Below the pieces are notes generated by a model. That model saw only the letters and a program-made list of their open reading frames with translations. It was not told the DNA's origin and ran no database searches. Below, piece after piece: positions 15,039-46,260 of a stretch of DNA of 64,000 nucleotides (the first letter of the stretch is position 1; each line of letters starts with the position of its first letter). Both the position numbers and the translations under genes were made by a program. The stretch comes from Candidatus Campbellbacteria bacterium RIFOXYC2_FULL_35_25 (lineage in GTDB: Bacteria > Patescibacteriota > Minisyncoccia > Phycocordibacterales > UBA12079): assembly GCA_001774495.1 (NCBI GenBank), contig MFAE01000006.1, positions 69,356 to 133,355 of the forward strand. The letters are read 5' to 3'.

Positions 15039-15234
15039 CAACACACTTGCCCTAATTGTTGAAATGGCCCACGCGCGAACGTGGGCCATTCTTTTATTTA
15101 CAATGAACTTTAAATAAGATAATATATAAGGTGTTCAATATTTGATTGGATGATTAACTTCCTCCAGAGGCGGACAGGCAGTTTCATTTAGGATTTGAAA
15201 ATTAAATATAATATCCAAGTATACAATAATATTT

Positions 15235-15308
15235 GGGCGATTAGCTCAGTTGGTTAGAGCAACCCGTTTACACCGGGTAGGCCGGGGGTTCGAATCCCTC
15301 ATCGCCCA
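15235..15308 (+). tRNA. tRNA-Val (TAC)
   Basis: Manual fold: acceptor GGGCGAT/ATCGCCC, D-arm GCTCAGTTGGTTAGAGC, anticodon loop TTTACAC, T-loop TTCGAAT. Confidence 0.85.
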
Positions 15309-16845: not shown

Positions 16846-17398
16846 AATTAGCCTTAACTAAAATTTTTAAAGAAAAATCAACTTCATCATCTTTTACCAA
16901 ACTAGACACGGGAAAATCTATCTCAACAAAATTGTTATTTTCCTTGAGCAGGTTAACAAAATCAATCAAAGTGCTTCTTTTTTGAGCTACGCCGTTGACG
17001 ACCAATGTTATGCTACCTTTCTCTGTCTTTGATTCATCTTTTTTCTCGTAAAAAAAACTTCTTATTTCAACATTTTCTGGCTTGGTAACAACTATTTCAT
17101 TTATTATTTCGCTAGCATCAATTTCATTCTTTTTATTCAATAAATCCAATTTTATTTTTTCATTTATTAAAATATTTCGGTAAAAATCTTCGTCTTTTTC
17201 TCCGTTGGCCTTTTGTAATAAGGATATTTTTGTGATAGCGTCAGATTCTTTAAAATTAGATAAAAAGTAAGAAGGCATTAATAAAATGAAAGCAACACAA
17301 ATTGAAAAAAAGGAAAAAAAGAAAAAAACTATTATTAATCTTAAAATAAATTCGTAAAAAATAGTCTTCTTTTTTTCTTCTGGTAGTAAATTAATCAT
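16838..17398 (-). CDS. pilN: type IV pilus assembly protein PilN
   Basis: N-terminal MINLLP motif followed by a TM segment; overlaps the pilM stop. Confidence 0.6.
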   Translation of the reverse strand: MINLLPEEKKKTIFYEFILRLIIVFFFFSFFSICVAFILLMPSYFLSNFKESDAITKISLLQKANGEKDEDFYRNILINEKIKLDLLNKKNEIDASEIINEIVVTKPENVEIRSFFYEKKDESKTEKGSITLVVNGVAQKRSTLIDFVNLLKENNNFVEIDFPVSSLVKDDEVDFSLKILVKANYE

Positions 17399-17399
17399 T

Positions 17400-18574: not shown

Positions 18575-19165
18575 TTAAACAAGAACAAACCAAGCCACAA
18601 TAAGAACAACGATTATTATCGAAACAACATTAAAGTATTTAAAGAAATAATTAGTTAATTTTTCTCCATATTTCTTCATAACAAAACCAACAGTAAAAAA
18701 TCTCATCCCCCTTCCCAAAAGAGATGCCACCATAAAGTTAATAAAATTAATCTTGAAAAAACCAGCAGAAATAGTGAATATTTTATAAGGAACAGGAGTA
18801 AAAGCAGAAACAAAAACTGCCCAAAAAGCATTATCCGCAAACTTCTCAGAAACATACGCCATTTGACTTTGAAGATTATATAGAGAAATTAAATGCTCCC
18901 CGACGACATCGAAAAACAAAAAGCCTATCAAATAACCAAGAATTCCGCCCAAAACAGAGAAAACGGTTGTAAGAGATGAATAATAAATCCATCTCCTAGC
19001 ATTAGCTCCTAAAATTGCTATAAGTAAAACATCAGGGGGGATTAAAAAGAAAGAAGCTTCAGAAAAAGAAAAGGTGGCAAGCCAAAATTCCGCTTTTTTC
19101 CCATGAAGACGCGATACAGACCAGTTTGTAATTTTAATTTTTAATTCGTTAATTAAGTTTTTCAT
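18575..19165 (-). CDS. DedA/YqaA-family membrane protein
   Basis: FSEASFFLIPPDVLL motif and multiple TM segments. Confidence 0.65.
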   Translation of the reverse strand: MKNLINELKIKITNWSVSRLHGKKAEFWLATFSFSEASFFLIPPDVLLIAILGANARRWIYYSSLTTVFSVLGGILGYLIGFLFFDVVGEHLISLYNLQSQMAYVSEKFADNAFWAVFVSAFTPVPYKIFTISAGFFKINFINFMVASLLGRGMRFFTVGFVMKKYGEKLTNYFFKYFNVVSIIIVVLIVAWFVLV

Positions 19166-19209
19166 TTTCTAAAAAAGTTCTTAAACCAGATTCATTCTAC
19201 CTAAAGGTA

Positions 19210-19536
19210 TTATTTAACCACTGACCCATTCCCCATTTCCTTGTTGGGCTCAAGCGTGGTTAGGTCTTTACCATCCGAGACATACAAAATCATTCCCTGG
19301 CTCTCATAACCCATAATTTTCCTTGGCTCAAGATTCATCAAAACGGGAATCTTTTTCCCGATAAGAGCTTCTGGGCTATCAAAATATTCAGCTACACCAG
19401 AAACAATTTGTCTCTCCACTTTCTCCCCCACATCAACCTTACAAAGAAAAAGCCTGTCGGACTTTTCAACTTTTTCGGCTGATTTTATTTCTCCAATTCT
19501 TATATCTATTTTTGCAAAATCATCAAAATTTATCAT
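19210..19536 (-). CDS. tRNA-binding protein (CsaA/Trbp111, Myf domain)
   Basis: 108 aa OB-fold tRNA-binding domain pattern (DIRIGEIKSAEKVEKSDRLFLCKVDVGE). Confidence 0.7.
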   Translation of the reverse strand: MINFDDFAKIDIRIGEIKSAEKVEKSDRLFLCKVDVGEKVERQIVSGVAEYFDSPEALIGKKIPVLMNLEPRKIMGYESQGMILYVSDGKDLTTLEPNKEMGNGSVVK

Positions 19537-19698
19537 AATAAATGTAAAGTTAAAATCTCAAAATGAAAAATGACAATAAAAAATCTTAAAATCTTACGAA
19601 AATTTCTTCTCGAAATTTTCGTTATTATTTTATATTTTACACTGTTATTTTTCATTTTGAGATTTACATTTTAATTAGTAAAGCTATTCTTTTTACCC

Positions 19699-20136
19699 TT
19701 AACTGTCTCCCATAGTAGCATCCAAGTAACTACGCAAAATCAATGCTGCAGCGGAGGCGTCGTTCTTTTTTAAAGAAACTGTTTTCTCTTTTCTTTCGCC
19801 CTTTCTAATGTTTCTCAAATTTTGTCCCTGAGTTCTTTCCGCTTCTGCACTCGTAAATAATTCCTTTTGAAAATAAGTTGGTAAAGTAGTTTCTTTTTCT
19901 AATTTTTCTTTAAAGGAAATTATTTGTTTCATTATGGGGTTTAGTTCTCCTTTAAAATTTAAAGATTCGCCAATAACAATCCCCCCCACTTTTTCTTCTT
20001 CACAAATTTGTTTTATTTTGCTAAACAAATTTTCGTCATTGTCTAAAACGACTTTCGGGAAAGCCATTTTACCACCCTCATCAGAGATAGCAATGCCAAC
20101 ATTTTTTAACCCATAGTCTATTCCTAAATATTTCAT
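19699..20136 (-). CDS. ruvX: Holliday-junction resolvase-like YqgF/RuvX
   Basis: MKYLGIDYGLKNVGIAISDE N-terminus is typical of YqgF. Confidence 0.8.
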   Translation of the reverse strand: MKYLGIDYGLKNVGIAISDEGGKMAFPKVVLDNDENLFSKIKQICEEEKVGGIVIGESLNFKGELNPIMKQIISFKEKLEKETTLPTYFQKELFTSAEAERTQGQNLRNIRKGERKEKTVSLKKNDASAAALILRSYLDATMGDS

Positions 20137-20145
20137 AATTACTTA

Positions 20146-20652
20146 CTATAATTTATTTTCTAAGTTTTTTAAAATAAATTCGACGCTATCTTTTATGTCA
20201 TTGTTATTATCAACAAACACCTCTTCTTCATTTTTTATTTTATCCAAACTATTTTGCAAACTTTTAAAATCTTCGATTGTATTTTTTATTTTTCTTTCTC
20301 TTTGATGCTCAGTCTCCAAAAGTTTTTCGAAATCTCGTTGTATATAAAACCAGAAAATTTCAATGTTACTTTCTTTACAAAAACTTTTTACCCTTCCAAC
20401 AAATTCTTTGTTATCAAAAAGCTCATCAACAACAACTAATTTTTCCTTTTGGTCAAAATATCTCTCAATTTCCTCAGTTATTTTATCATAACTATACAGA
20501 TAAACCTCTTCATTTTTGAAATCAGAATTGGCTATCATGAACTCTCTCTTAAAAGAATCGCCATAAATAACCTGACTATTTAATTTATTAGATAATTCTT
20601 CTGCTATTGTTGATTTACCACAACCAGGTAGACCTCTCAAAATAACTAGTTT
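20146..20652 (-). CDS. P-loop kinase resembling the T4 polynucleotide kinase (Pnk) kinase domain
   Basis: VILRGLPGCGKST compared with T4 Pnk ILTIGCPGSGKST. Start taken at the internal Met of the track ORF. Confidence 0.5.
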   Translation of the reverse strand, partial: KLVILRGLPGCGKSTIAEELSNKLNSQVIYGDSFKREFMIANSDFKNEEVYLYSYDKITEEIERYFDQKEKLVVVDELFDNKEFVGRVKSFCKESNIEIFWFYIQRDFEKLLETEHQRERKIKNTIEDFKSLQNSLDKIKNEEEVFVDNNNDIKDSVEFILKNLENKL

Positions 20653-24543: not shown

Positions 24544-25155
24544 CTATTCTTTGTCAGTAAGTATGACAAGTCGCTCGGAATGGGTTTTTTCCACCTGATT
24601 CCAATCTCCCATGCAAGTTATGAGGTTAAGGTGCGCCTTGCCATCGTCTGATTCAAACACACCCAATGCCACATCATCTTTGTCATAGATTCGGATTTCA
24701 CGCACAATAAAAGTGGTGGTCACCCCTTTTTCATCTTCAACAGATATCCTTTCCCCTTCTCTTAATTTGTGTAAATTATCGAATACCGCCGGTATGTTAT
24801 TTTTCCAACCGTAGTGTCCGTTAATAACAGCACTGCCACTTTCACCAGGGCGCGGTCCAAGATTAAACCATGCTACATCAGTAGGGTCTTTTGGTACATC
24901 CATTGCTCCGTCGGACGTAAGCCCCACAGAAATAACCGCTGAATCAACTCCAATCGCCGGAATCTTAAGACGCACCGGTAGTCCAACGCTTGCGTATTCT
25001 TGATTTGGAAGAGTGGCAACATTTTCAATGAGCAATGCCGAACTACCTTGAATTGGGTTTTTTAGAATAAAATTAAAAAGAAGTATTGCAAAAAGAATGA
25101 ACCCTAAAAGGATAATACCCAACAACATTCGTTTTGATAAGATTTTTGATTGCAT
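24544..25155 (-). CDS. sortase (class E/F-like)
   Basis: N-terminal TM, conserved His (VINGHYG) and the catalytic LITCMG cysteine motif. Confidence 0.75.
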   Translation of the reverse strand: MQSKILSKRMLLGIILLGFILFAILLFNFILKNPIQGSSALLIENVATLPNQEYASVGLPVRLKIPAIGVDSAVISVGLTSDGAMDVPKDPTDVAWFNLGPRPGESGSAVINGHYGWKNNIPAVFDNLHKLREGERISVEDEKGVTTTFIVREIRIYDKDDVALGVFESDDGKAHLNLITCMGDWNQVEKTHSERLVILTDKE

Positions 25156-25242
25156 AAATTTTGTAAAAAGTTTTTAAACACAAATGCCAAACAAAAATTT
25201 GTTTGGCATTTGCTTGCTAATAATTTTCCTTGATAATTAAGA

Positions 25243-26735
25243 CTAAACTATTTGCTTTCTTTGAGCAAAATAGAATAGAGCCAAAACAGCAAAGATGCCG
25301 ACTGGGGCAACAATATTCCAAGGAATACTATTATCGCTAGGAGGAAGCCCTGTGTTAGGTAATTTAGGAATAGTGACATTCACAACAACAGTAGCGACGG
25401 CAGAGTCTCTAGCAGTCAGACCGTTAGCTTCTCCGCTAGCAGTAACTGTGTTCTCTGTAGTTTTAGTAAGTGTTGCTTGGCAGGAGTAGAACCATGTTTC
25501 GGTGGTATCAAGCTTTGAATTACTATTAGTGTCACCAGAAATATATTTTACCGGACTGCATTTATCATCAGATAGAAGGACATTGTTCAATGCGACCGTT
25601 CCTGGATTAGTAACTTGGTTAATGTAGGTGACCGTTCCCCCTCCAGCAAGGAGTGCTAGTGGGCTTGGAACTTTTGTCACGTGGATCAAGGCAACGCTGG
25701 CAATAATTGGTGCAATATCATCTTAATGATGGTACAAGTTTTAGTCTCGCCATTCACAATTGTCCCCGAACAACCTACAGAACTAGACTGTGAGTAACCC
25801 GGAAGATTAATTTCCGTTACTTCGTAAGAACCAGTATTTAGTGTAACATCCACACCGGAAGCAGAGCCGGCAAAAGAACTCGAGGAAACATTCGTGCCAG
25901 CGATGTTAATCATGAAATTAGAGGGAATTGCCAACCCGCCATTATCATTGATCACCAACTTAACTACACGAAGTGTAGCGGTAGAAAACACGCGACCGTC
26001 AGAGGAAGAGGAAGAGGCAGAGGAAGTGGAAGTGGAAGGCACACATGTCGGTCCCGAAATAGTATTATTGATCAAGGTTACATCACCTCCCAATGCCAAA
26101 GCCCTTCCGTTCAAAACTACGCCACTGCCAAAATGAACACCTGTTCCTGCGATGATTGTTCCGACAAAAGAACTACCATTAATAGTTGCCAAAGTGTTAA
26201 CTTTCCAATATACATCACAAGCTCTTGCCCCATTGATTAAATTAATAGAACCAGATGATATTAAATCACTTGATGCTCTTAAAATGTATACACCAGGACC
26301 ATCAAGCGTAAGCACACCACCATTTAACCGTCCAGCTCCGATATCATAAACACCAGTAGTGAGAGCCAGACCATCAAGAGCTGGGCCAATACTTGCGGTT
26401 GAACCCTGCGCGGTTATGTTGTCATTCGCAGTTGAAAGATTGGTTTGAACAGCAGAATCTAAAGTTGCCAAACCTGGGGACATTCCATCTGTGGAATATA
26501 TTGTGCCACCCACATCTCCGGCAGTTAATGTGGAAATCCCGGCACCAGTACTATTTATCCCAACATTCCCAGATATAGTTCCTGTCCCTGTAATCGCGGT
26601 TTGTGCAACAATAGAAAAAGTGGCAGACGCGCCCAATCCTGGGTCCGTTGCCGCAAATACGATGGTCGCTCCGGCTATACCAAGTATAAGCATAATACTC
26701 AATATAATTATTGAAACTTTGTTAATTTTTTTCAT
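25243..26735 (-). CDS. LPXTG-anchored surface protein split by a frameshift near 25686-25720
   Basis: The 349-aa part has a signal peptide and a Gly/Thr-rich beta-helix-like region plus a prealbumin-like domain. The 148-aa part has no signal peptide or ATG, contains a DUF11-like domain, and ends in LPNTG-TM-RKQ. The upstream frame of the second part is open for 12 codons overlapping the first. Confidence 0.55.
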
Positions 26736-31667: not shown

Positions 31668-32621
31668 ATGACTGGGGGAGAATTTTTTAAATGGATAGTG
31701 TTCGCTTTTATAGGGCTTTTCGTGCTCTGGTTTCTTTCTGGTGGCCCTGATCGAGGGGCCACCCAGCAAGGAGGGGCGGCGGCGACAACCTCCCCCTCAT
31801 CCGGTATTGCCGGTTATTTTAGCGCCTACACCAATAACCAAAGCGGTTCCACAGAAACAGTGCTTAGAAGCCCAAGAGTAAGGCCTGAGATAAAAAATCC
31901 ACTAGAAAAAGAATCGGAACAAACACAAGAGACAAAAAAAATCTCTCTTTATCAAGATAAAATTTCAATAGAAAGAGGGACTGCTACTTATACCGACCCT
32001 TCTGCTGAATATTTAGTATTAACCAACGACAGAAAAAACAAAGAAAAAATTAATATCTCTGGTTGGTCGATAACAAGTTCAGCTACAGGGAAAAACATTA
32101 CTATAGGTGAGGCTTCCTATCTGCCCTACACGTCTAAAACTAACCCCCAACAGCCAATTTTCTTGTCTCCTGGAGACAAAGCTTATGTAACAACGGGAAG
32201 GTCTCCAATAGGAACTTCCTTTAGAACAAATCTTTGCACGGGGTATTTTGAACAATTTCAAGATTTTAAGCCCTCTCTAAAAAATGAATGTCCAAGGATA
32301 GTAAATGAGGAAAACTTTAAAATAAAAATATCCGGCCCAAATGCCTTAAATGATGCTTGCATTGATTTTATTGAAAGAATGAGAACATGTACGATAAACG
32401 CAAAACCACTACCACTAACAATGCAATACGAGTGTTCTTCTTTCATAAACTCGGAAATCAATTATCAAACCTGCGTAACGAACCACAAAAATGAAGAAGA
32501 TTTCTATAAATCTGAATGGAGAATTTTCTTAAACAGAGATGAAGAATTGTGGAAAGCTAAAAGAGAAACAATAAGACTTTTAGATGCTGATGGAAAAGTA
32601 ATTGATAGTTTGAGTTATTAA
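31668..32621 (+). CDS. secreted/membrane-anchored protein with lamin-tail-domain-like region and Cys-rich C-terminus
   Basis: N-terminal TM, YLVLTN...ISGWSITS...GDKAYV (LTD-like), and 8 Cys in the C-terminal third. Confidence 0.4.
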   Translation: MTGGEFFKWIVFAFIGLFVLWFLSGGPDRGATQQGGAAATTSPSSGIAGYFSAYTNNQSGSTETVLRSPRVRPEIKNPLEKESEQTQETKKISLYQDKISIERGTATYTDPSAEYLVLTNDRKNKEKINISGWSITSSATGKNITIGEASYLPYTSKTNPQQPIFLSPGDKAYVTTGRSPIGTSFRTNLCTGYFEQFQDFKPSLKNECPRIVNEENFKIKISGPNALNDACIDFIERMRTCTINAKPLPLTMQYECSSFINSEINYQTCVTNHKNEEDFYKSEWRIFLNRDEELWKAKRETIRLLDADGKVIDSLSY

Positions 32622-32677: not shown

Positions 32678-33685
32678 TTATTTCACACATCGATACTTAT
32701 AAGTACTACTTGTTCTTGTGCCAGTTACAGTAGTAAACATAGTACCGTCAGCTAATTTATAAACAACCTGTCGAGGAAAAGTTATGGCGTCAGAGTTTAC
32801 ACTTGAAACATCACTGCTCCATATCAGCGCTTGAGAGCCCACATTTGAAACAATTTTCGATCCTGGATATAAGATGTCGTGCCAATATACATATTCCAAA
32901 TCATGGGTACTTGGGAGCCTCCAACATTTTTCCTCCCCCCCAGTATTCATAGCCATACATCCAGCATAGGCATTTTGCAATAAAACAGAAGATGCCGACT
33001 CATTACTTATTTGTGTAGGGATACTTGAGCATGTTGCGATAGATGCCGCCGAAACACAATTAAGACCATTTTGGTCACAATATTCTGTTGCACCAACTTT
33101 CCCCTCTACATCAAGTTTCAGCCCTGCATCTGGAGTAAAATCCCCTATTCCTACTTGCCCATCACTTTCTATAGTTAAATAATTGTTCCAATTAGTATTT
33201 CCTCCAAAAGCCCAATTATTGGTCGTTGCTACTTTATAACCTATTGAGAAACTATTATTTCCTGCAGATCCCCAATGGTTTAAGGACCAGTGAATACCAT
33301 CTTCATCAGAAAAAAGAAGGTGAGAATCCCCTGAGCCACCAATAATTTGCAATGCCGCGCTCAAATCTTCAATGATGACATCAGCAATGTCTGCTTTTGC
33401 TGCAGCTTGGTCTACATTTTTCACGTGAAGTTGAGCTTCCGGGCTAACAGTTCCAACACCCACATTGTTGCTAACATAAGCGGTTCCAAAAACTGCCAAA
33501 GCATCAAGGCTCAATCCCGCTCCTTTAACTTGAGAGGTTGGACCTACATTCAAAGGAGCAGCAACATTCCCCTCAGTGGGAGGGAGTGAGGGAGCGGTCC
33601 AAGCGGCGAAAGCATAGTTTACCCCCACGGACAACACTAGCGCCAAAATAATTATTTTTATTGCTTGAATAATATCTTTTTTCAT
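32678..33685 (-). CDS. membrane-anchored protein with phage tail-fibre/endosialidase-chaperone-like motif
   Basis: Signal/TM segment, then NVGVGTVSPEAQLHVKN, resembling the Peptidase_S74 start motif. Shares the 116-bp leader with the next gene. Confidence 0.4.
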   Translation of the reverse strand: MKKDIIQAIKIIILALVLSVGVNYAFAAWTAPSLPPTEGNVAAPLNVGPTSQVKGAGLSLDALAVFGTAYVSNNVGVGTVSPEAQLHVKNVDQAAAKADIADVIIEDLSAALQIIGGSGDSHLLFSDEDGIHWSLNHWGSAGNNSFSIGYKVATTNNWAFGGNTNWNNYLTIESDGQVGIGDFTPDAGLKLDVEGKVGATEYCDQNGLNCVSAASIATCSSIPTQISNESASSVLLQNAYAGCMAMNTGGEEKCWRLPSTHDLEYVYWHDILYPGSKIVSNVGSQALIWSSDVSSVNSDAITFPRQVVYKLADGTMFTTVTGTRTSSTYKYRCVK

Positions 33686-33695
33686 AATTTTATTA

Positions 33696-33811
33696 TAATA
33701 ATTAATGATTAGTTTATAAAAAATTCTCCAAAGAAAATATCTCAAAGAATTTGTCTTTGTTTCTTCTAATTATATCCCTTTAATCTTTTTGTGTATATTC
33801 TTAACTGTGGA
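33696..33811. repeat. exact 116-bp repeat (copy 1) forming the 5' leader/promoter region
   Basis: Identical to 38426-38541. Both copies are preceded by similar terminator hairpins (aaaggttttttgtt...). Confidence 0.85.
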
Positions 33812-33894: not shown

Positions 33895-36800
33895 TTAGAA
33901 TTCTCCTCCGTTGATAGGACAATCCGTAGGACAATTGAATGGGGTTTCTCCTTTTTCACAAGAGTAGTTGATGCAGAAAGCATTTTCGGTAGTAGGAGTG
34001 CCGTCAGTACAGCTGTCGTCTAGACCATCAATAAGACCGTCACCATCGTTGTCTAGCCCGTCGTTGCATTCGGTAATTATAGGGGTTTCTGTGTTATCAG
34101 CGACATTGCTACAGTCAGGATCTCCTGTTCCGTCGGTTTTGTAATCTATTTTCCCGTCAAAATCATTATCAATACCATCGCTACATTGTGTGGATCCGTC
34201 AGACTCATCATTGTCTAAATAGGAAGTACAACCGGAGTCAGCTCCATAATCTTTATTTCCGTCACTGTCATTATCGACGCCATCACTACATTGGGTAATA
34301 CCAATACTACCAACTGTTATTATAGACTCTTTGGTTACCCCACTCGTTGCTTTTAACTTTTCTTTTCCTGGCGCTTTTGGAGTAATTACTCGATTAGGAC
34401 CAACCATTGCTGAGTCAAAAGCATCATTGGTAACGATTGTGCTTGTCCAAGTAACAGAAGAAGTAACATCTCCAGTACTATCACCGCATCCTAGATCTGC
34501 GTTAAAACAAGCTCGAACATTGATAGGCACTCCGATAACCGCAACCTGATCTCCTTCAAACAAAATACCCGAGTTGCAAGAATCTTTACATATTTTCAAG
34601 GTGTTGGATGCTGGGACGGAATCAAACCAAACACAAACCGGTTCGATACTGTTGCCTGCTGTACTTTGTGCAGTCGCTGGATCCGCGTAAGCATTGTGAA
34701 AGGCCTCAACATAATTTACGCCTGCTGGTACAACAAAATTAGTGTTAACAACTCCTGACCAAGATGCCTCATTTACACCGTCGAGTAAGTCGAGAAGGGT
34801 GGGGTTCGTTTGTGCTAACAATCCTGTAGGAGGGAAAATCGTGGTGTTGTTAGATCTTAGGTTAACATGAAATTTTTCCCAAAATTGCCCAATGTTGGAT
34901 GAGCGGGTAAGGCCTCCATCATAAATCATCAAGCTTACGTTGTAATTTCCTGGAGGGACTGCACGAGAAATAATTTCACTAGCACTGTACACAGAACCGG
35001 AGGAACTAGCTCCTTGGAGGAAATCGACCACAACATCACCAGGCCCAGCAACGAAAGGACAGGCCGGTTTAGTGTATGCGCTTTCATGGTCATCCAAAGA
35101 ATTCGTACAATCAGGGTCCCCCGTTCCGTTAGATTTGTAATCTATTTTCCCGTCAGGGAACAATTCATTATCAATACCGTCATCGCATTCTACCGTGGGG
35201 TTTTGTTCGCTGGTATCTCCAGGACCAGAGCACCCTGGGTCGGCTAGGTCAGTTAAACCATCTCCGTCGTCATCAACACCATTATTACATTGGGTGCTTC
35301 CGACAATAGCAACTTCCACTGTTTTGTATGGGGTAGATTCACCCTGAGTATTTAAACACTTTAAGCCATAAGTTGTCGTAACAACAGGGGAAACAACTTC
35401 GGAATAACTCGTCCCTAGCATAGTCGCAACTGGACCAATCCATCCTGTATAAGTACATATAAGCATGGAGTCCGTAGTATCGATTTTCCACCTCAAATTA
35501 GCACTGCCCCCCGCAACAATAGGGCTATCAGTGGTCCAAAAACTTACATCAGGAGTAGTTTCATTCCCATCCCAAACACTTTTACACCCCGGATCGGTTG
35601 GATAATCTACTTTACCATCACCATCGTCATCCAAACCATTATCACACGCTGGGCCTGAAGCATTTTTCTCGCTAGGGTCTGTCGTGGCGGAACAACCCGG
35701 GTCACGTAACGCAGGAACAATATTGTAATCGGTTAAACCATCTCCATCGTTATCGATGCCGTCGCTACATTCCGTGGCAGATACAATAGTGACATCAATA
35801 GCACTACTTGCGTTGCTAGTGCTGTTTGCTACATTATAGACGATAGTAGCAGTACACCCAAGATACTGAGCTTGTGCAAGTTCCACTACGCTGTTTCCTG
35901 GACTGTTTTGAGCGGGAGTCCAAACTCCACCTGTGCCAGCGCCAGGACATGTGCCAGAAAGATAATATGTAGCACCCCACGATGTACCGCCGGTCGAGCT
36001 CCATTGTTTAGTATTACTTTGTCCAACAACAAGCGTTTTGCTCTTTAATCCGTCAATAGTAATAGAAGCAGTAACCGGAACAGGAGCAGTACATGTATTT
36101 GTATTTTTGCTCCACACCCCATTCACGCACGAATAACTACACGATCCACTATAACCAGAAGTACAAGTACCAACAGAACCAGAAGAGACTGAGGGAAGAA
36201 CACAACTACTGAGTGAAGTGGCTGGGCAGAAAACAGGAGGGGGTGGAGGATTTTGAGCTTTTACCCGTATTGAATCAATAAGTTTCGTTGACCCATCCCA
36301 TAATTCATAATAAGTTCCACAAGTCGAATCTACATTGTTATCCACGTAACTTCCGCCCAACTTACCTGTTGCTACAAAAAACAAATCAGGATATACACGC
36401 TCTAGAACACCAAGATTAGAAGCATTATATTCCCACGAAAGGGTGGATGAACAAACGGTATTGCCACCAACAAGAGTACATGGATTGGGGGTGGCTTTAA
36501 GAATTCCCTTATTTAATGTAGGAGCGGTACAATAATTTGGATTAACCGTACAAGTCTTGTATTTAGCGGATCCTGTAAACCCGCTAAGTGTACAGGTTCG
36601 AGTTTCGGTCTCACAAGGAGTTCCAAAATTAACAAACCAATCTTTATAGGGTGCTATTGTCCCTCCAAGTCCGCGATGTAAAGTACCGCCTGTTGGACCA
36701 TAAGTAAAAACACATTGAAAATAGCGCACTTCATATGGCACAAGAATTGATTTACCATTACCAGTAAAGGTAGCCTCAAAATATTTTCCACTACCATAAC

Positions 36801-38415
36801 CAGGAGCACCATCGAGATTCATTGGTGCCGGTATATAAACTCTTTTATAAACATTCGTACCGCCCCATAGAGATTGATGTACCAATATATCCTTTGTCTG
36901 TCCATTGGCGGTTACGCTCAAGTTTATATCGCCAGAATAAAGATTACTACACCAGTTTGCAGTAGCATTCCCATATATCTCCATAGTGTCTCCTTGAGTA
37001 TAAGGTCCGCCCATACTAACTGAATATGTCACTTCCCCATTAGTAAAGGTGTCTGCCTGCACCAAACTTCCGCTCGATAAGAAAATCCCGCCAGCCAGCA
37101 AAAGAAAGATTGCGACCGATAATCCTTTTCTTTTTTTGAAAAATATCATCATAAGAAAAAAAATCACAAAAATAATGACAAGAATGATGCCATATTTAAA
37201 AAATTGGCTTAACTGAGATTGCCCCGCTGGGACATTTTGACTTTCAATAGTAAAATCTTTTTTGTCCAAAATATTACCTTTATCATCCTGAATCGCAACG
37301 GCTATATTTGGATTTTGACAATTTACATTTATAGGCAATTCATAATCAACCGCGAATGAAGCTTGGTCCATTTCTTTTTGTACAGTCGCGCAGACTTTAT
37401 TTTGCGTATTTTTAATAGCAATATTAATCAACATCTTGCCATTATCTGTTTCCCCTAATCTAGAATCAGGGAAATTGTCGGCTGAAGAGGCCCAGAGTAA
37501 CGAGACTTTGGCTATGTCGCCTTTTTGATAATAGTCTTTGTCTAGGCGTAAATTTTGAATAGTGGCACTCAATCCACGAAGCACATAATGAAAAGTAACT
37601 TTATTAGAAATGTTTTGATTTTGGTCATTTACAAACTCTAAAACGACCTCATAAGCTTGAGGAGCTTTCGCTTTGGGTAGGTTAAAAGAAAGCTGTTTTT
37701 TTTCTTTCTTACCCAACGTCACAGTTGGTTGATTTTCCAAATTAGTGTTCACCTCTTGACCAAAAGTAGTACGCCAATAGGTTTTGAACTGTGGAGTAAT
37801 AGTAATTGGATTGTCGGCGTGATTTGTTGCGTCGCAAATAGCAATGAGTGTTTCTTCTGATGTGATGTCCACCCCTTGGCTTGATGTGTATTTTTTATAT
37901 CCGGCCTCTCCTTTCACAGTTAGATAACAAGAATTTTGGTCTATTTCTACATACTGATTATTTCCGTTAAGAATTGCTTTGCCGGGGTTAGTTAAAGCCA
38001 ACATGAGTCCATTTTTATTTTTGGCAACCAGCCAGATTTCAAACTCTCCACTTAGATAACTGGGAGCATTATAGTCAATTTCTTTATGCACAGTTTGATT
38101 TTCATTCAGTGTAACTGATTCATCATAAATTTTTTCATCCACAATAACTTGTGACCCCGCTACATTTTTAATCAATTGAACAGCATATGCTACATCCGGC
38201 TGAACATTAACACGATTGGAAAGATCAAAAGACAACTTAAAAGAATTTCCCTCTTGAGAAACTATCTGAGCACTGTAGATATTAACTGTCGCCACCACAA
38301 CGAATTCTTGCGAGTCTGGATTTAAGGGAGGAGTTTCCTCTACTTGTGCAGAGGCAAAGGATGTTAAGCCTAGAACAATTATGGAAAAGGCTACAATTAA
38401 TTTTAATTTCTTCAT
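33895..38415 (-). CDS. giant (1506 aa) Cys-rich surface protein with Ca-binding CxDGxDNDxDG repeats
   Basis: Signal peptide. An internal TM and a signal-peptide-like segment follow at about residue 410-450. Multiple CSDGIDNDGDGLTDY repeats. Ends in ...NCPTDCPINGGEF. Paralogous domains are shared with the next gene. Confidence 0.6.
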   Translation of the reverse strand: MKKLKLIVAFSIIVLGLTSFASAQVEETPPLNPDSQEFVVVATVNIYSAQIVSQEGNSFKLSFDLSNRVNVQPDVAYAVQLIKNVAGSQVIVDEKIYDESVTLNENQTVHKEIDYNAPSYLSGEFEIWLVAKNKNGLMLALTNPGKAILNGNNQYVEIDQNSCYLTVKGEAGYKKYTSSQGVDITSEETLIAICDATNHADNPITITPQFKTYWRTTFGQEVNTNLENQPTVTLGKKEKKQLSFNLPKAKAPQAYEVVLEFVNDQNQNISNKVTFHYVLRGLSATIQNLRLDKDYYQKGDIAKVSLLWASSADNFPDSRLGETDNGKMLINIAIKNTQNKVCATVQKEMDQASFAVDYELPINVNCQNPNIAVAIQDDKGNILDKKDFTIESQNVPAGQSQLSQFFKYGIILVIIFVIFFLMMIFFKKRKGLSVAIFLLLAGGIFLSSGSLVQADTFTNGEVTYSVSMGGPYTQGDTMEIYGNATANWCSNLYSGDINLSVTANGQTKDILVHQSLWGGTNVYKRVYIPAPMNLDGAPGYGSGKYFEATFTGNGKSILVPYEVRYFQCVFTYGPTGGTLHRGLGGTIAPYKDWFVNFGTPCETETRTCTLSGFTGSAKYKTCTVNPNYCTAPTLNKGILKATPNPCTLVGGNTVCSSTLSWEYNASNLGVLERVYPDLFFVATGKLGGSYVDNNVDSTCGTYYELWDGSTKLIDSIRVKAQNPPPPPVFCPATSLSSCVLPSVSSGSVGTCTSGYSGSCSYSCVNGVWSKNTNTCTAPVPVTASITIDGLKSKTLVVGQSNTKQWSSTGGTSWGATYYLSGTCPGAGTGGVWTPAQNSPGNSVVELAQAQYLGCTATIVYNVANSTSNASSAIDVTIVSATECSDGIDNDGDGLTDYNIVPALRDPGCSATTDPSEKNASGPACDNGLDDDGDGKVDYPTDPGCKSVWDGNETTPDVSFWTTDSPIVAGGSANLRWKIDTTDSMLICTYTGWIGPVATMLGTSYSEVVSPVVTTTYGLKCLNTQGESTPYKTVEVAIVGSTQCNNGVDDDGDGLTDLADPGCSGPGDTSEQNPTVECDDGIDNELFPDGKIDYKSNGTGDPDCTNSLDDHESAYTKPACPFVAGPGDVVVDFLQGASSSGSVYSASEIISRAVPPGNYNVSLMIYDGGLTRSSNIGQFWEKFHVNLRSNNTTIFPPTGLLAQTNPTLLDLLDGVNEASWSGVVNTNFVVPAGVNYVEAFHNAYADPATAQSTAGNSIEPVCVWFDSVPASNTLKICKDSCNSGILFEGDQVAVIGVPINVRACFNADLGCGDSTGDVTSSVTWTSTIVTNDAFDSAMVGPNRVITPKAPGKEKLKATSGVTKESIITVGSIGITQCSDGVDNDSDGNKDYGADSGCTSYLDNDESDGSTQCSDGIDNDFDGKIDYKTDGTGDPDCSNVADNTETPIITECNDGLDNDGDGLIDGLDDSCTDGTPTTENAFCINYSCEKGETPFNCPTDCPINGGEF

Positions 38416-38425
38416 GATTTTGTTT

Positions 38426-38541
38426 TAATAATTAATGATTAGTTTATAAAAAATTCTCCAAAGAAAATATCTCAAAGAATTTGTCTTTGTTTCTTCTAAT
38501 TATATCCCTTTAATCTTTTTGTGTATATTCTTAACTGTGGA
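38426..38541. repeat. exact 116-bp repeat (copy 2)
   Basis: See copy 1. Confidence 0.85.
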
Positions 38542-38615
38542 ATAAAAAATTCTCACAGAAATAACAAAAAACCTTTGTCTTACTTCAGACAAAGGTTTTT
38601 TGTTTAAATAATTTT

Positions 38616-41600
38616 TTAGAATTCTCCAAATAATGTAAAGCAGTCGGTGAAACAATTAAGGAAGTTTTCTCCTGCTTCACAAATATTGTTTCCACAAACA
38701 CTTGGTGGGGGGGCGCAGGTTGTGGCTGTGCAGTCGGAGGCACATCCGCCAGGAGGAACACATGTGGCTCCGTTGTTTACTCCTAGGTCGCATTCTTCTG
38801 TCCCTTGTTTAATACCGTCTCCGCACTGGTAAAGACCTAGCATATAAATCTCACCACCAAGAGAATAATCAGAACTAACATTGTCCTCCAATATATAAAA
38901 GGAAAAATCACCGAATTCATTATAAGCAGTATTGGTATATCTTATTTTCTGAATGCCTCCATCATTTATAACGGATGTCGTCCCATAATGAGCTGGCGTT
39001 GCAGTAATGGTGACCCCAGTTGTGTGATTGTAGATGTCATTTGCTAATACATTGATATCAATTGTTTCTCCTTCGTTTATATAAACGACATCTGGGAGGG
39101 CCTTAACATTTGGTGACTCTTTATCATCAGTAGGAGAATCACAATCAGAGTCTTGCATGTCATACAATCCATCTTCATCATCATCAATTCCGTTATCACA
39201 TTGAAGATTACTCAACTCACTATCGTCGGTGGACGATGAACAACCTGGATCAATTGCTTTAAATAAAGCACAGATTGGGATAACGCTGTTAGCACTTGAA
39301 GTATCAAGATAAGCTGTATGAATAGACCTAATATTGGTTATTCCGTCAGGAACAGAGAAATTAGTATTAACTGTTCCTATCCAAATATCGCTAACAACAT
39401 TATCGGCTAAGTCTGGAGTGCTGGCGGTTGTTTTTACTTGCCCACTATCATTTCTTAAGGAAACATAAAACTTTTCATTGGGTTGAGTGACGCTTACACG
39501 AGTACTGTAACCATCGTAAGACATTAATTTAACATTATAATTACCTGAGGGGATGGCTTTAACAACTTGTTCATAGTAAGGAATAGTATCAGACCGGAGT
39601 CCTTTTGTGAAATTAAAAAGAACGTCCTTACTCCCAGCCACAAAAGGACAAGCTGGTTTAACAGGAGGATCGGGAGGAACAACTACGGGATCAGCATCTA
39701 CCTTAAAATCAGTGTACCCATCTCCGTCGTTATCTATACCGTCATTACACTGAGTGGGTACTGTGATATTGGCTTCTTTCGGTGTTCCGCCATTAGACAC
39801 TGTTAATTTTTCTGTTCCTACCGCATTAACTGTAATTACTTCATTAGGAGAAACTGTAGCAGAATCAAAAACATCATTAGGATTAACTTGGCTTCCCCAA
39901 ATAGCAGAAGTTGTTGTAATATCACCAGTAGCACTACCGCACCCAGAATCAAGATTAAAACAAGCTCGAACATTTATAGGTGTTCCAATTGTTGCTGTTT
40001 GGTTTCCTTCAAACAAAATCCCCGAGTCACAAGAATTTTTACATATCTTTAATGTGTTTACAGCAGTGGAACAAGTAGCACATTTTGGATTTTTAGAGTC
40101 AGATGGGTTTTCACCAAATTTTAACCAACCAATAACATCGCCCCCCCAAGCATACCCAAAAATATCTTTAGTATCATCATCAAAATAAACACCATAAGGC
40201 TTGGGAACAGCTTCTGTAGTTTCCCCACTAAATTTTATCCAACCGTCCCAGCCGTTAAGAGAACCGGATTTCCCAACCATAGAATAAATATCGGAGGACT
40301 TCTCTCCTCGATTTAAACAATTACCAAACGTATCACATGATATAAATTCGCCACTGTCTAAGCCAATCCACAGTTCGTCATCTAAAACAGCCATAGAATA
40401 CATCCCTCTGTTTGTTTCTTTTGTGCCAAGATTGGTACAGTTTCCAGATAAATTACAAGAAAGTAAACCATCATACAGCATCCCGAGCCATAATTTATTA
40501 TCAAATACTTCCATCGACTTAACAGAGTCTCCTTTGTCTCCAGCATTGACGCAACTCCCCAAGGAATCACATGATTGAAGAACTCCATCACCCATACCAA
40601 TCCATAATTTATTATTAAATACTGCCATATTCTCGATGGTGCTTACCCCCTTACTTCCATGATTAACACAGTTCCCGGATGAATCACAAGACAGCAAAAC
40701 CCCACCAAAAGATCCAAGCCATAACTTGTTTGCAAACACTTTCATTCCGAGTATATTTCCTCCTTTAGATCCATGGTTCACACAGATTCCCGATGAATCA
40801 CAGGACCTTAGTGTGCCATCTGCCCCACCTACCCAAACCTTGTTATTAAACAATTCTATTCTACCAACGGCATTAACTGTATTTATGTACGAGACACAAT
40901 GCCCAAACATATCACAAGAATATAACTTACCGCCCACAGGTACCGCCGCCCAAATCTTATTGTCAAAAATTTTTATATCTTTCATAGAAGAACCCCCCAC
41001 AAGGTATTCCTCGCACCCACCTAAAAAGTTACACTTTCTCAATGTTCCGTTCCCCTGTGCTGTCCACAACTCACCAACAAAAGGAGAAACCTCAACAACA
41101 ACATCAATAGAATTTCCTTTGTCGCCATGATTAGTACAGCTTCCTAGTGAGTTGCATGATTGTAAAGTTCCATCACTGTGACCAAGCCATAATTTGTTGT
41201 TAAACTCTGACACATTATTTATACGGGAACCCTTAATTCCATGATTAGTGCAGACTCCGGATGAGTTACACGACCGTAGCTCCCCAGAATCCTGGCCAAG
41301 CCATAATTTATTATCAAAAACCTCCAAAGAAGTTATAGGACTTCCTTGAAGAGTGTCATTAGCATTTGTAATTTCTTCCTCAAACTCAGTATACGACCGT
41401 AACCGGCCATCCTCTTGCCCTATCCATAATTTATTATCAAAAATCTCTATTGCGTTAATTGATGCCCCTCTATCGCCTAAGTTAAGGCAGGAACCGTCAT
41501 TATAACATAACTGCAAAATACCATCAGATTGCCCGAGCCAAAGATAATTCTTAAACACTTTCATAGCCTTAATTGCCACTCCTTTATCGCCGTAATTTAC

Positions 41601-42317
41601 ACAATTTCCCAATCTATCACAACCCAATAAACTACCATCACTCTGTCCAACCCATAACTTTCCATTATACTCTAGTAAACTACTGGCGGAAGAACCAAGA
41701 TATCCATAGCTAGTAAGCCCACCTAATGTACCAATAGATTCGAAGTGCCCTGTTTTAAGACCTACCCATATTCTGTTATTAAATATTTTGGCGCTATCTG
41801 GACTTCCTACTAAAGATTCAAAAAAAGTACATGACCCTGTGGAGTCACATTTTTGTATAATTCCTCCCTCTTGGATAATCCAAAGTTTATCTCCACCCCA
41901 ATCACCAGCAAAAGCAGCAGTCTCGGTTCCGATTGGGTCACCAGCTACAGCCCTCGCCCAACCAGTCAACCTACCGTCGGACTCAAGCCAAACCCCATGC
42001 TGTGGATTTTCTGGAAAACCAAAACCACCATCACTTGGGTTAAGATCAATCCAACCAATGTTACTGCTCCAAGCATAAGAACCAGGAGACACTTCCCCCA
42101 CCTTTAAATTCATTCCGTAATCTGTCGCAGTTACTTCACTGCTGGAATTAAGACTAACCCAACCAATATTGCCACTCCATGCAAAACCAGTGGTATTTTG
42201 GGAAGAACCAGCATCAACATTTAAAACATGACTTGTAAAATTAAAGAAAAAAACAAAAACGGCTACAAAAATAAAAGCCTTTAATATTTTATTATTTTTC
42301 AAATTTTTAATTAACAC
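38616..42317 (-). CDS. giant (1233 aa) surface protein with about 12 beta-propeller-like repeats and Ca-binding repeats
   Basis: Signal peptide; repeated FDNKLWLGxxDGxLxSCxxxGxCxNxGxKG units; CNDGIDNDGDG motif. C-terminus ...NCFTDCFTLFGEF is homologous to the C-terminus of the 1506-aa protein. Confidence 0.6.
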   Translation of the reverse strand: MLIKNLKNNKILKAFIFVAVFVFFFNFTSHVLNVDAGSSQNTTGFAWSGNIGWVSLNSSSEVTATDYGMNLKVGEVSPGSYAWSSNIGWIDLNPSDGGFGFPENPQHGVWLESDGRLTGWARAVAGDPIGTETAAFAGDWGGDKLWIIQEGGIIQKCDSTGSCTFFESLVGSPDSAKIFNNRIWVGLKTGHFESIGTLGGLTSYGYLGSSASSLLEYNGKLWVGQSDGSLLGCDRLGNCVNYGDKGVAIKAMKVFKNYLWLGQSDGILQLCYNDGSCLNLGDRGASINAIEIFDNKLWIGQEDGRLRSYTEFEEEITNANDTLQGSPITSLEVFDNKLWLGQDSGELRSCNSSGVCTNHGIKGSRINNVSEFNNKLWLGHSDGTLQSCNSLGSCTNHGDKGNSIDVVVEVSPFVGELWTAQGNGTLRKCNFLGGCEEYLVGGSSMKDIKIFDNKIWAAVPVGGKLYSCDMFGHCVSYINTVNAVGRIELFNNKVWVGGADGTLRSCDSSGICVNHGSKGGNILGMKVFANKLWLGSFGGVLLSCDSSGNCVNHGSKGVSTIENMAVFNNKLWIGMGDGVLQSCDSLGSCVNAGDKGDSVKSMEVFDNKLWLGMLYDGLLSCNLSGNCTNLGTKETNRGMYSMAVLDDELWIGLDSGEFISCDTFGNCLNRGEKSSDIYSMVGKSGSLNGWDGWIKFSGETTEAVPKPYGVYFDDDTKDIFGYAWGGDVIGWLKFGENPSDSKNPKCATCSTAVNTLKICKNSCDSGILFEGNQTATIGTPINVRACFNLDSGCGSATGDITTTSAIWGSQVNPNDVFDSATVSPNEVITVNAVGTEKLTVSNGGTPKEANITVPTQCNDGIDNDGDGYTDFKVDADPVVVPPDPPVKPACPFVAGSKDVLFNFTKGLRSDTIPYYEQVVKAIPSGNYNVKLMSYDGYSTRVSVTQPNEKFYVSLRNDSGQVKTTASTPDLADNVVSDIWIGTVNTNFSVPDGITNIRSIHTAYLDTSSANSVIPICALFKAIDPGCSSSTDDSELSNLQCDNGIDDDEDGLYDMQDSDCDSPTDDKESPNVKALPDVVYINEGETIDINVLANDIYNHTTGVTITATPAHYGTTSVINDGGIQKIRYTNTAYNEFGDFSFYILEDNVSSDYSLGGEIYMLGLYQCGDGIKQGTEECDLGVNNGATCVPPGGCASDCTATTCAPPPSVCGNNICEAGENFLNCFTDCFTLFGEF

Positions 42318-42321
42318 AAGA

Positions 42322-42609
42322 TTAATTTTTTAGATTATTGATAATTTCTAGTTTCTCTTCGTTAGAAAGATTTTGTTCTGATGAAAGTTCACGAATAGTT
42401 TTGCCCTTCTGTTCTGAGTTAGCTTCACTAGTATCCTTGAGTAATGCATCTATTATTTCCATCTTCTGTTCTTCTGTTATGGGTTTCTCAACAGTCTGTT
42501 TTTGGGGTAGTAAAATAAGTACTATTAAAACAATAAAAAGAAAAATTCCAATGCTAATAAAAATCTTTTTTCCTTTTGATAAATCTTCAATAATATTATT
42601 TATTGACAT
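42322..42609 (-). CDS. small membrane-anchored hypothetical protein
   Basis: One TM segment; sits immediately upstream of the giant protein gene (4-nt gap). Confidence 0.35.
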   Translation of the reverse strand: MSINNIIEDLSKGKKIFISIGIFLFIVLIVLILLPQKQTVEKPITEEQKMEIIDALLKDTSEANSEQKGKTIRELSSEQNLSNEEKLEIINNLKN

Positions 42610-45479: not shown

Positions 45480-46260
45480 GCATTACCCGAGTACCCGAGG
45501 CAAGGCCTCGAGGCCTTGCCTCGGGTGAATAAAACTATATAATATAAACATGGGAATTAGAAATATAATATTTTCGGAAGGAGAATTTTATCATATTTAT
45601 AATAGGGGTACTGATAAAAGAATTATTTTTGACGAGAAAAGAGATTATCTTCGCTTTATAACCTTACTTTATCTTTGTAATAATACTGAAAAAATCCACA
45701 TAAATGAGTATGCTAAAAAAGGGTTTAATTTACTGTCTCTTTTAAAAGTACAGAAGGAAAACACATTAGTCGAAATCGGGGCCTATTGCTTAATGCCGAA
45801 CCACTTTCATTTATTAATTCGTGAAAAAGTTGAAGGTGGTATTAGTAATTTTATGCAAAAATTAGCAACAGCTTATTCTATGTATTACAACAGTAAGTAT
45901 CAAAGAACGGGTTCTTTGTTTGAAGGAAAATTTAAAGCTACTCATGTGGCTAAAGATAATTATTTAGAATATCTATTTGCATATATACATTTAAACCCTG
46001 TTAAACTAATTGATTCTAAATGGAAAGAAAATGGAATTAAAGATAAAAAGAAAACCAAAAAATTTTTAGAAAATTATGAATACTCCAGTTATTTAGATTT
46101 TATTGGTAAAAACAATAGAATTGAAGAGAAAATATTAGACGGAAAAAACTTTCCCAATTATTTTGAAACTTTCGAGGAATTTAATAAGTTTGTAGATGAG
46201 TGGTTGAGTTTTGAAGAAGAAAAGTAAGGCAAGGCCTTACAAATTAGTACGGTCCCCCTT
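45480..46260 (+). mobile_element. tnpA: IS200/IS605-family-like element (RAYT/Y1 HUH transposase) flanked by GC-rich hairpins
   Basis: CDS 45550-46227 (225 aa) carries HFHLLI (HUH) and catalytic-Tyr-region YIHLNPV motifs. Left hairpin cccgaggcaaggcc-tcga-ggccttgcctcggg at 45496-45527. Right hairpin aaggcaaggcctt at 46229-46244. Confidence 0.65.

Follow-up and report, generated by a model that had tools for sequence, protein, structure and literature searches.

A fused anchor-plus-passenger protein family and a recurrent C-terminal tag on exported proteins of Patescibacteria

Introduction

Patescibacteria, also named the Candidate Phyla Radiation (CPR), are thought to hold a large share of bacterial diversity, and all of their cultivated members are attached to other microbes. 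We consider here two giant genes, P1 and P2, encoded on the minus strand of a 64-kb stretch of DNA from Candidatus Campbellbacteria bacterium RIFOXYC2_FULL_35_25, a tiny organism of groundwater; the whole analysed stretch is called the window. An earlier note, made from the sequence alone, described their products as paralogous Cys-rich surface proteins with a common C-terminal tail that might serve in sorting or anchoring. It is reported below that P1 belongs to a large protein family in which a membrane anchor and a secreted passenger are fused, and that the ends of P1 and P2 are a local variant, x-G-E-F, of a short C-terminal tag distributed over the radiation.

Two groups of described systems place a functional peptide at the C-terminus of exported proteins. 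The first one is represented by PilC/PilY1, large and disulfide-rich adhesins of the type IV pilus tip without a membrane anchor. With their last ~10-12 residues they supply, in trans, a strand to the PilK/PilX pseudopilin (bioRxiv 10.64898/2026.02.14.705861, Ellison et al., 2026; PMC13533445; PMC13190605), and the C-terminal strand of PilC/PilY1 was also described by Treuner-Lange et al., as cited in PMC13190605. In the type II secretion system, Com, and Tad, the pseudopilin gives the strand in cis, and cis equivalents are known in GspK, MshQ, and CpaL (bioRxiv 10.64898/2026.02.14.705861; PMC13533445). The second group comprises the C-terminal sorting signals of sortase, exosortase, archaeosortase, and rhombosortase systems (LPXTG, PEP-CTERM, PGF-CTERM, GlyGly-CTERM, and MYXO-CTERM). 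These signals are tripartite and consist of a motif, a transmembrane helix, and a basic cluster. Within CPR, the Pam pili of Saccharimonadia and Microgenomatia represent another display system, in which membrane-anchored immunoglobulin (Ig)-like chaperones exchange strands with Ig-like subunits (bioRxiv 10.64898/2026.03.03.709456).

Fusion of membrane anchor and passenger in P1

The open reading frames (ORFs) of P1, P2, and a 95-amino acid (aa) protein encoded upstream of P2 were reproduced with the coordinates and lengths previously reported. The parts of P1 that define its architecture are given below; a slash marks a predicted cleavage site.

P1: 33895..38415 (-), 1506 aa, ATG start, NCBI name hypothetical protein A2442_00995, member of the A-B (anchor-plus-passenger) family
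P1 N-terminal signal peptide: residues 1-23, MKKLKLIVAFSIIVLGLTSFASA/QVE, 38347..38415 (-), from sequence reading and a transmembrane scan
P1 A-module: residues ~39-389, 37249..38301 (-), three tandem beta-sandwich domains
P1 first transmembrane segment (TM1): residues 401-429, 37129..37215 (-), stop-transfer anchor of the A-half, then KKRK
P1 internal Sec-type signal peptide (predicted): residues 430-454, 37054..37128 (-), basic n-region, h-region, VQA/DTF
P1 first passenger domain: residues 455-565, 36721..37053 (-), conserved Ig-like beta-sandwich
P1 variable Cys-containing middle: residues 566-882, 35770..36720 (-), partly common to P0002 and P0025

The order of elements in the A-B family is signal peptide, three beta-sandwiches, transmembrane anchor, basic loop, second Sec signal peptide, Ig-like domain, and variable passenger. 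A search with full-length P1 returned 52 homologues, all aligned over P1 residues 1 to ~510 and thereby across both hydrophobic segments at ~400-450, and differing from each other in their C-terminal parts. With clustering at 50% identity, an exhaustive profile search yielded 1384 clusters for E<=1e-30, and 3132 when the limit was E<=1e-10. The 76 A-B loci found in a scan of one genome per species are nearly all labelled Patescibacteria (Paceibacterota, Moraniibacteriota, Nomura-, Kaiser-, Yonath-, Adlerbacteria, and others), and the few exceptions are uncultured metagenome bins; a single genome frequently holds several copies. Family contigs from automatically binned assemblies (L025, L045, L050, L058, L074) bear the labels Gammaproteobacteria, Alphaproteobacteria, Bdellovibrionales, Woesearchaeota, or Muribaculaceae, which probably reflects mis-binning or mislabelling. 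Over the conserved part, no Pfam or NCBIfam family is common to the 45 members scanned; the P1 family is large, restricted to Patescibacteria, and undescribed in the curated libraries and the searched literature.

In the A-module, 13 residues are invariant in 53 sequences (Q72, Y77, Y115, G123, C163, C194, G219, Y255, G281, I286, Y296, C342, and C366), and four of these are Cys. The module also contains LPKAxxPQAYD and SATIQNLRLDKDYY as motifs, and it is unusually conserved for a stalk. The AlphaFold2 model of P1 residues 24-565, built with the family alignment (pLDDT, the predicted local distance difference test, 88.7; pTM, the predicted template modelling score, 0.86), consists of three beta-sandwiches followed by a helical hairpin and a fourth beta-sandwich. 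When the anchor module was compared with PDB using Foldseek, only generic tandem arrays of macroglobulin, fibronectin type III (FnIII), and Ig domains were recovered (E ~1e-8, probability 1.0, TM-scores ~0.2), and no enzyme fold was among them. The best matches were complement C3/C5, bacterial alpha-2-macroglobulin, RbmA, and the Ig domains of PrgB; however, with identity of 8-13%, such low TM-scores, and neither thioester nor bait region, the resemblance is one of fold class only.

The earlier note had located an internal transmembrane helix and a signal-like segment at about residues 410-450 of P1. Both are present, TM1 being followed by a second hydrophobic segment at residues 431-452 that ends with VQA/D455. 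Across 53 sequences, the internal segment has a K/R n-region, an h-region of ~15 residues, and a G/S/P c-region; position -3 relative to the cleavage site is occupied by A (38), V (13), S (1), or T (1), and position -1 by A (49) or G (4). Judged by these features, the segment is a canonical Sec signal peptide, and signal peptidase I would most likely cut at VQA/D455. The predicted mature passenger begins with D-T-F (P1 residues 455-457), followed by a beta-strand, and these positions are D in 32, T in 42, and F, Y, or W in 43 of the 53 sequences, a pattern that hints at a function of the new N-terminus itself.

The suggestion that P1 arose by fusion of two genes is borne out by loci in which the A and B halves are separate genes. 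Five such loci were found: in L043 and L054 the two genes lie side by side, and in L053, L078, and L080 they overlap (by 4 nt, ATGA, in the last one). In the split loci the A gene ends past TM1 and the basic tail, and the B gene starts with an N-terminal signal peptide that corresponds to the internal segment of P1 and ends, for instance, in AANA/KTF, AQA/DTF, or AKA/DSF. These split versions in other genomes stand in a Rosetta-stone relationship to P1, in which the anchor gene and the passenger gene have become one. Seven contigs, which come from four independent sources (ENA, two Joint Genome Institute samples, and Logan), encode the identical 1506-aa P1, and the junction is contiguous in all 52 homologues and in hundreds of representatives; a frameshift or mis-assembly as the origin of P1 is thereby ruled out. 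P1 is an ancient, conserved gene-fusion architecture and not a local accident.

A C-terminal tag on exported proteins

P2: 38616..42317 (-), 1233 aa, GTG start, secreted mosaic
P1 tail: residues 1481-1506, 33898..33975 (-), four-Cys mini-module CINYSCEKGETPFNCPTDC, then the last 7 residues PINGGEF
P2 tail: residues 1208-1233, 38619..38696 (-), CGNNICEAGENFLNCFTDC followed by FTLFGEF, strict tag match

P1 and P2 share their GEF ends, as had been noticed before, and no other protein of the window does: among 273 stop-to-stop ORFs of at least 60 aa, a GE[FYW] end or a C..DC box in the last 45 residues was found in these two only. Comparison of the C-terminal parts of the homologues shows that the core of the tag is aromatic-x-Glu-hydrophobic at the extreme C-terminus, with last-four forms such as YQEF, FNEF, WVEF, FIEI, and WQEK, and that alternatively the core is followed by x-P-(x), as in NWKEVAP or NWREVSPN. 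A strict tag was defined as [WFY]-x-E-[VIFLM] at the C-terminus, or W-x-E-V-x-P, placed within the last 8 residues; the pattern was set on the first 53 sequences, after the data had been seen, and was then applied to independent sets. The end of P2, FGEF, matches it strictly, and the end of P1, GGEF, keeps the Glu, the Phe, and the position, with Gly in place of the aromatic residue.

The strict tag was present on 51 of 116 new representatives of the family. In genome loci, 27 of 61 family ORFs carried it, compared to 8 of 751 other ORFs, and pooling of the family representatives gave 80/166 against the same background of 8/751 (Fisher p 4e-58). Among non-family ORFs in these loci, the tag was linked to a signal peptide (12/96 with and 8/503 without one, p 6e-6), and overall it occurs on ~5-12% of signal-peptide ORFs in the sampled loci. 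It was also ten-fold enriched in non-family ORFs located at most 300 nt from a family gene (8/22 compared to 4/74, p 6e-4); three of these eight matches, all of which enter the p value, are second halves of split family genes, and without them 5/19 are left. The tagged neighbours bear the same tail variant as the adjoining family gene.

A tag-first scan of metagenomes for NWKEVAP followed by a stop codon returned 92 stretches, including 50 ORFs of at least 150 aa. These ORFs represent several unrelated families, and many of them are rich in Cys; of the complete ones, most begin with an N-terminus that resembles a signal peptide. The anchor module was found in only 4 of the 50. The tag codons of these 50 ORFs form 35 distinct strings (24-mers), and therefore the tag is conserved at the protein level. 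A translated DNA element, such as a recombination site or the target end of a retroelement, was considered as the source of the tail and ruled out, since synonymous positions vary freely. In loci not selected for the tag (348,694 residues), W[KRQ]E[VI].P was terminal 20 times and internal once. Domains of no fewer than four unrelated kinds precede the tag, whose Glu is invariant and whose register is fixed, and the tag is a recurrent, position-specific C-terminal signature linked to secreted proteins.

No library assigns this tail to a known fold. The findings named in the earlier note as refuting its reading, absence of the motif from other secreted proteins and assignment to a known common fold, were thus not obtained. 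The tag-first proteins gave no Pfam or NCBIfam match, and for five of them together with P1 and P2 no NCBIfam CTERM model matched at E<=1. A word-index search with the tail alone as query, which is short, gave no candidates, and literature searches for the peptide strings of the tag and for CPR sorting signals found nothing relevant but the papers on the Pam pilus and on PilY1 strand addition.

The four-Cys box and the shared cassettes

The signature originally proposed, a CxxDCxxxxGEF tail, has to be divided: the terminal Glu-hydrophobic end recurs, but the CxxDC box is not part of the core, and it is also found internally. This Cys box is a 19-aa four-Cys mini-module, C-x-N-x-x-C-E-x-G-E-x3-N-C-x2-D-C, for which no Pfam or NCBIfam model exists. 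It stands exactly seven residues before the end in P1, P2, P0048, P0121, and P0157, and P0157 ends with PFNFTEF, bridging GEF to the consensus. In P0134 (residues 783-879), the box, in the form CGNGxCxxGExxxxCxxDC, occurs four times in tandem at an internal position, and these copies make it an independent mini-module.

A similar distinction applies to the claim that P1 and P2 are paralogous, which holds for two cassettes and not for the whole proteins. The two domains already noted as shared were confirmed by BLASTP, the "TLKICK" domain with 61% identity (P1 1269-1390 and P2 752-871, E 3e-36) and the "PACPFVAG" domain with 38% identity (P1 1063-1267 and P2 841-1022, E 1e-28). Since the order of the two is reversed between the proteins and the other ~80% of each protein is unrelated, P1 and P2 are mosaics rather than true paralogues. 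Neither domain has a Pfam or NCBIfam match. The PACPFVAG domain was seen only in P1, P2, and one Moraniibacteriota member of the A-B family (L039 9929-13231), whereas the TLKICK domain occurs in at least 16 tag-first proteins and several A-B family members and is thus widespread among tagged proteins of the radiation.

P1 PACPFVAG domain: residues 1117-1268, 34612..35067 (-), unannotated
P1 TLKICK domain: residues 1269-1372, 34300..34611 (-), unannotated disulfide-containing module
P1 C-terminal acidic double-disulfide repeat block: 33976..34290 (-), copies start at residues 1376, 1411, and 1450; others start at 883, 924, 1043, and 1077
P2 TLKICK domain: residues 752-856, 39750..40064 (-)
P2 PACPFVAG domain: residues 887-1023, 39249..39659 (-)

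The CxDGIDNDxDG repeats, correctly described for both proteins, correspond to the NCBIfam model NF033662, "acidic double-disulfide repeat". With a cut-off of 41 bits, P1 passes (97.6 bits, 7 copies by regular expression) and P2 stays below (35.7 bits, 2 copies); the model describes the repeat module only and is silent on the tail and the architecture. Each of the two proteins contains 46-47 Cys. P2 starts with a signal peptide, followed by GFAWSGNIGWVSL-type repeats and ~14 beta-propeller-like blades of 38-40 aa (residues ~140-690), then TLKICK, an acidic repeat, PACPFVAG, an acidic repeat, a Big_9-like Ig domain, and the Cys-rich end. The Pfam matches to propeller and WD40-like models are weak and cover residues 214-379, far from the C-terminus. 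P2 has no anchor module, transmembrane anchor, or second signal peptide, which places it outside the A-B family, and 5 or 6 of its 8 partial homologues have tag-like ends.

Comparison with described display systems

The proteins considered here resemble PilC/PilY1 in several respects. In both cases the proteins are large and rich in disulfides, have variable adhesin domains, lack a membrane anchor, and are exported via Sec and signal peptidase I (here the P1 passenger, and P2 with its signal peptide and disulfide-rich adhesin region), and the functional last ~10 residues of PilC/PilY1 correspond in position to a tag at the extreme C-terminus. Both the trans arrangement, with tagged proteins beside tag-less GspK-type pseudopilins, and the cis arrangement, with tagged PilX_N pseudopilins, are found. 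P2 has beta-propeller-like repeats, and the acidic repeats contain a calcium-loop pattern, Dx(D/N)xDGxxD, that is given for PilY1 in PMC13190605. However, there is no match to the PilY1 propeller PF05567, the P2 propeller is not C-terminal, and no pilin genes lie near P1 or P2. Moreover, the tag marks 5-12% of signal-peptide ORFs, compared to 1-3 proteins per genome for PilC/PilY1, and it has a defined motif with an invariant Glu, whereas the cited papers state no motif.

With the CTERM signals the tag shares a short C-terminal signature, multiple copies per genome, restriction to a lineage, and occurrence on unrelated exported proteins. It differs in that only 0-6 residues follow the motif, and neither a transmembrane helix, nor a dedicated enzyme, nor a match to a library model was found. 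P1 and P2 are not sortase substrates, as no transmembrane segment follows P1 residue 452 or stands at the end of P2 and Gram_pos_anchor does not match; nor do they carry an exosortase, archaeosortase, or rhombosortase signal (no terminal transmembrane segment, no match to NCBIfam CTERM models at E<=1). They also lack the C-terminal domain of Type IX secretion, since no model matches, the tail is a 19-aa Cys box plus 7 residues, and the organism is a Patescibacterium.

The Pam system is likewise CPR-specific and has membrane-anchored Ig-like chaperones with a C-terminal transmembrane helix, strand exchange with Ig-like subunits, and no outer membrane. No sequence relation to it was found, although one family member matches the PamR model with E 5e-5 in its variable part. 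In addition, the donor strand of Pam is an internal linker strand (N-terminal in PamR) and not a C-terminal tag, and the Pam genes are separate rather than fused with an internal signal peptide.

A possible link to type IV pili

The largest tagged family (...LQRDLG...FEYAPDQ..LFP...RKINWKEVAP) was found in pilus loci in 7 of 20 cases, compared to 2 of 39 other tagged loci, and in these loci it is accompanied by prepilins, prepilin peptidase, PilM/N, and a short tag-less GspK-type pseudopilin. Complete-looking CPR pilus loci (L086 457-12806; also L093 and L169) contain 7 prepilin genes, prepilin peptidase, PilC, PilM, and a GspK-type pseudopilin, and a 690-aa secreted protein with the NWKEVAP tail abuts the three minor pilin genes. 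Long PilX_N-type pseudopilins tagged in cis were found in two minor-pilin clusters, L018 16652-20214 (pseudopilin at 18781-20214, 477 aa, ...SIDLWDEL) and L069 13121-15368 (pseudopilin at 13629-15368, 579 aa, ...STSWREQ). The window itself encodes PilM (17400-18521 (-), PF11104, E 1.7e-28), PilN (16838-17437 (-), 22.1 bits, with a Pfam cut-off of 22.8), and a probable PilO-like protein (16270-16845); because of its PilM and PilN genes, the organism can be said to have pilus machinery.

What the tag may do

In the proposed mechanism, both P1 and P2 are modular proteins of the cell surface, rich in disulfides and exported by Sec. The A-half of P1 (signal peptide, three beta-sandwiches, transmembrane anchor, and basic loop) stays in the membrane, and the B-half, which begins with its own Sec signal peptide, would most likely be cut at VQA/D455 and release a passenger of ~1050 residues, whose conserved N-terminal Ig-like domain accompanies the anchor half in the family. 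The tag would keep anchor-less exported proteins on the cell as a short strand added to a surface acceptor; candidates for this acceptor are, at the tip of the type IV pilus, a pseudopilin of the PilX/GspK type or, alternatively, the co-encoded anchor module. We give a probability of about 0.5 to the tag being such a non-covalent docking or retention peptide. The roles suggested in the earlier note, sorting or anchoring for the tail and host adhesion for the proteins, are putative.

By analogy with PilC/PilY1, a pilus-tip pseudopilin would be the acceptor with the best precedent, and it is put forward tentatively, well short of an even chance. In its fullest form this proposal makes the tail the Patescibacteria version of the PilC/PilY1 terminal strand, a universal plug by which numerous unrelated modular adhesins of one genome, including P2 and the P1 passenger, would be mounted interchangeably at the type IV pilus tip through addition of a strand to a PilX_N/GspK-type pseudopilin; in these wall-only cells without a periplasm, the fused A-B anchor would hold the passenger at the membrane until loading. 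We regard the plug as a possible arrangement, to be held with reserve.

Several observations speak against docking of the tag or against the pilus as its site. In the AlphaFold2 model of full-length P0018, the tail is a low-confidence coil (pLDDT 48) that is not docked on the anchor module, so this model does not support cis docking. The invariant residues of the anchor are retained in tag-less family members, about a third of the family lacks the tag, and P1 itself has Gly where the tag has an aromatic residue. Pilus synteny concerns a single tagged family, with which the cis-tagged pseudopilins have no detectable homology; no prepilin or GspK-like gene is present in the 64-kb window, and pilin genes are not enriched in loci of the anchor family (8/65). 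Finally, E. coli GspK does not end with W-x-E, and no sequence motif is shared with its terminal strand.

Three other explanations have to be weighed against non-covalent docking, and each of them is unlikely. The tail might be a covalent sorting signal, similar to sortase/LPXTG signals without the retention helix, in which a putative extracytoplasmic peptidase or transpeptidase would recognise aromatic-x-Glu, cut behind the Glu or one residue further on, and attach the protein covalently to peptidoglycan, an S-layer, or a lipid. The strictly terminal position on exported proteins would suit it, as would a tail predicted to be disordered by AlphaFold2 and a register that is fixed upstream of the Glu and then followed by 1 to ~6 variable residues (-F, -V, -K, -VAP, -VSPN, -VAPTGN) resembling a leaving group. 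It is nevertheless improbable: clustering of the genes beside tagged genes revealed only housekeeping and pilus genes and no enzyme candidate, the anchor module has no enzyme fold, the helix and basic cluster of known C-terminal sorting signals are missing, no NCBIfam sorting-signal model matches, and the sortase of the window lies 8 kb away with a classical SpaA-like substrate locus.

The anchor module could itself be the receptor of the tag, which would make P1 a self-contained anchor with cargo whose anchor half would grip the tails of adjoining proteins as well, P2 among them. In over 1000 clusters an anchor is joined to a tagged passenger or lies beside it, P2 adjoins P1, tagged signal-peptide proteins beside family genes are enriched and match their neighbour in tail variant, and the module is far more conserved than an ordinary Ig stalk. 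However, most tag-first proteins come without it (it is in the same ORF in 4/50 and in the same locus in 3 more, many loci being short), the P0018 model shows no docking in cis, and the conserved N-terminal domain of the passenger is a more natural element for binding the anchor. Because tag-less members keep the invariant residues, a simple receptor function is disfavoured, and we consider it doubtful.

It is also conceivable, with small probability, that the tail has no role in sorting or docking and acts in stability or quality control, as a cap against exoproteases or as a ligand of a PDZ protease, with P1 and P2 as ordinary modular adhesins, P1 kept by its uncleaved signal anchor and P2 released. 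Short C-terminal hydrophobic motifs are classical PDZ ligands; about a third of the family does without the tag, and the remainder of both proteins consists of common adhesin-type modules. On the other side, the Glu is invariant and its register is fixed although the preceding domains are of four or more unrelated kinds, the position is strictly terminal, tags cluster beside family genes, pseudopilins carry the tag in cis, and one tagged family shows pilus synteny; a generic cap would not require such specificity. An artefact, in which frameshift or mis-assembly fused P1 and the GEF end is shared by chance or as a translated DNA element, is hardly credible given seven identical contigs from four sources, a junction intact in 52 homologues and hundreds of representatives, 35 distinct 24-mers among 50 tags, and an end borne by only 2/273 ORFs of the window; the odd appearance of an internal signal peptide is the single point in its favour.

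Genomic context of P1 and P2

95-aa single-transmembrane protein: 42322..42609 (-), 4 nt upstream of P2
Terminator-like hairpin between P2 and P1: 38563..38604 (-), intrinsic type, 18 pairs and a T run
Promoter-like site upstream of P1: 38499-38527

The 95-aa ORF is probably co-transcribed with P2. Because the strong hairpin at 38563-38604 and the promoter-like site separate P1 from P2, P1 can be assigned a transcription unit of its own, and the units appear, from these predicted signals, to be [95-aa + P2] and [P1]. The 95-aa protein was rejected as a conserved partner, since no counterpart was found in more than 150 related loci. Extension of the source contig by 10 kb on each side in search of further tagged proteins gave nothing informative.

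Directly downstream of P1, a 355-aa secreted protein is encoded (32678-33745 (-)), with a weak Lcl_C-like match at its C-terminus and the N-terminal motif AWTAPSLPPTEGNVAAPLNVG. Its homologues are found in the tag-bearing loci L080, L089, L140, and L159, and also in L045 and L049, and such a gene may repeatedly accompany tagged ones. The product of the second gene downstream of P1, a 317-aa membrane-anchored protein (31668-32621 (+)), matches the lamin-tail domain with 31.3 bits (Pfam cut-off 34.3), and this lamin-tail-like gene enlarges the small cluster of surface-protein genes around P1. The sortase locus of the window (24544-26735 (-)) comprises the sortase (24544-25155), a DUF11/DUF7507-like protein (25243-25689), and an adhesin or pilin with Ice-binding-like and SpaA_2 domains (25686-26735); this classical locus is a display system distinct from the GEF-tailed proteins. 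An IS200/IS605-type Y1 transposase (PF01797, 225 aa, 45550-46227 (+)) lies ~3 kb from the 95-aa/P2 operon, beyond nusA.

Implications for Patescibacteria

More than 1000 clusters at 50% identity encode an anchor and a secreted passenger in one frame, split by an internal signal peptide, and the curated libraries and the searched literature are silent about them. Across the radiation, a C-terminal tag of 4-8 residues marks a sizeable fraction of exported proteins; it represents a putative C-terminal display tag that lacks the usual helix and basic tail, and it is found on a family with a new architecture. Adhesin repertoires would become readable from metagenomes if displayed proteins could be recognised by such a simple rule of sequence. 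If the tag is a pilus-tip strand, this repertoire would be tied to an organelle already implicated in host attachment, and if it acts as a universal plug, episymbionts would possess a swappable repertoire for host recognition.

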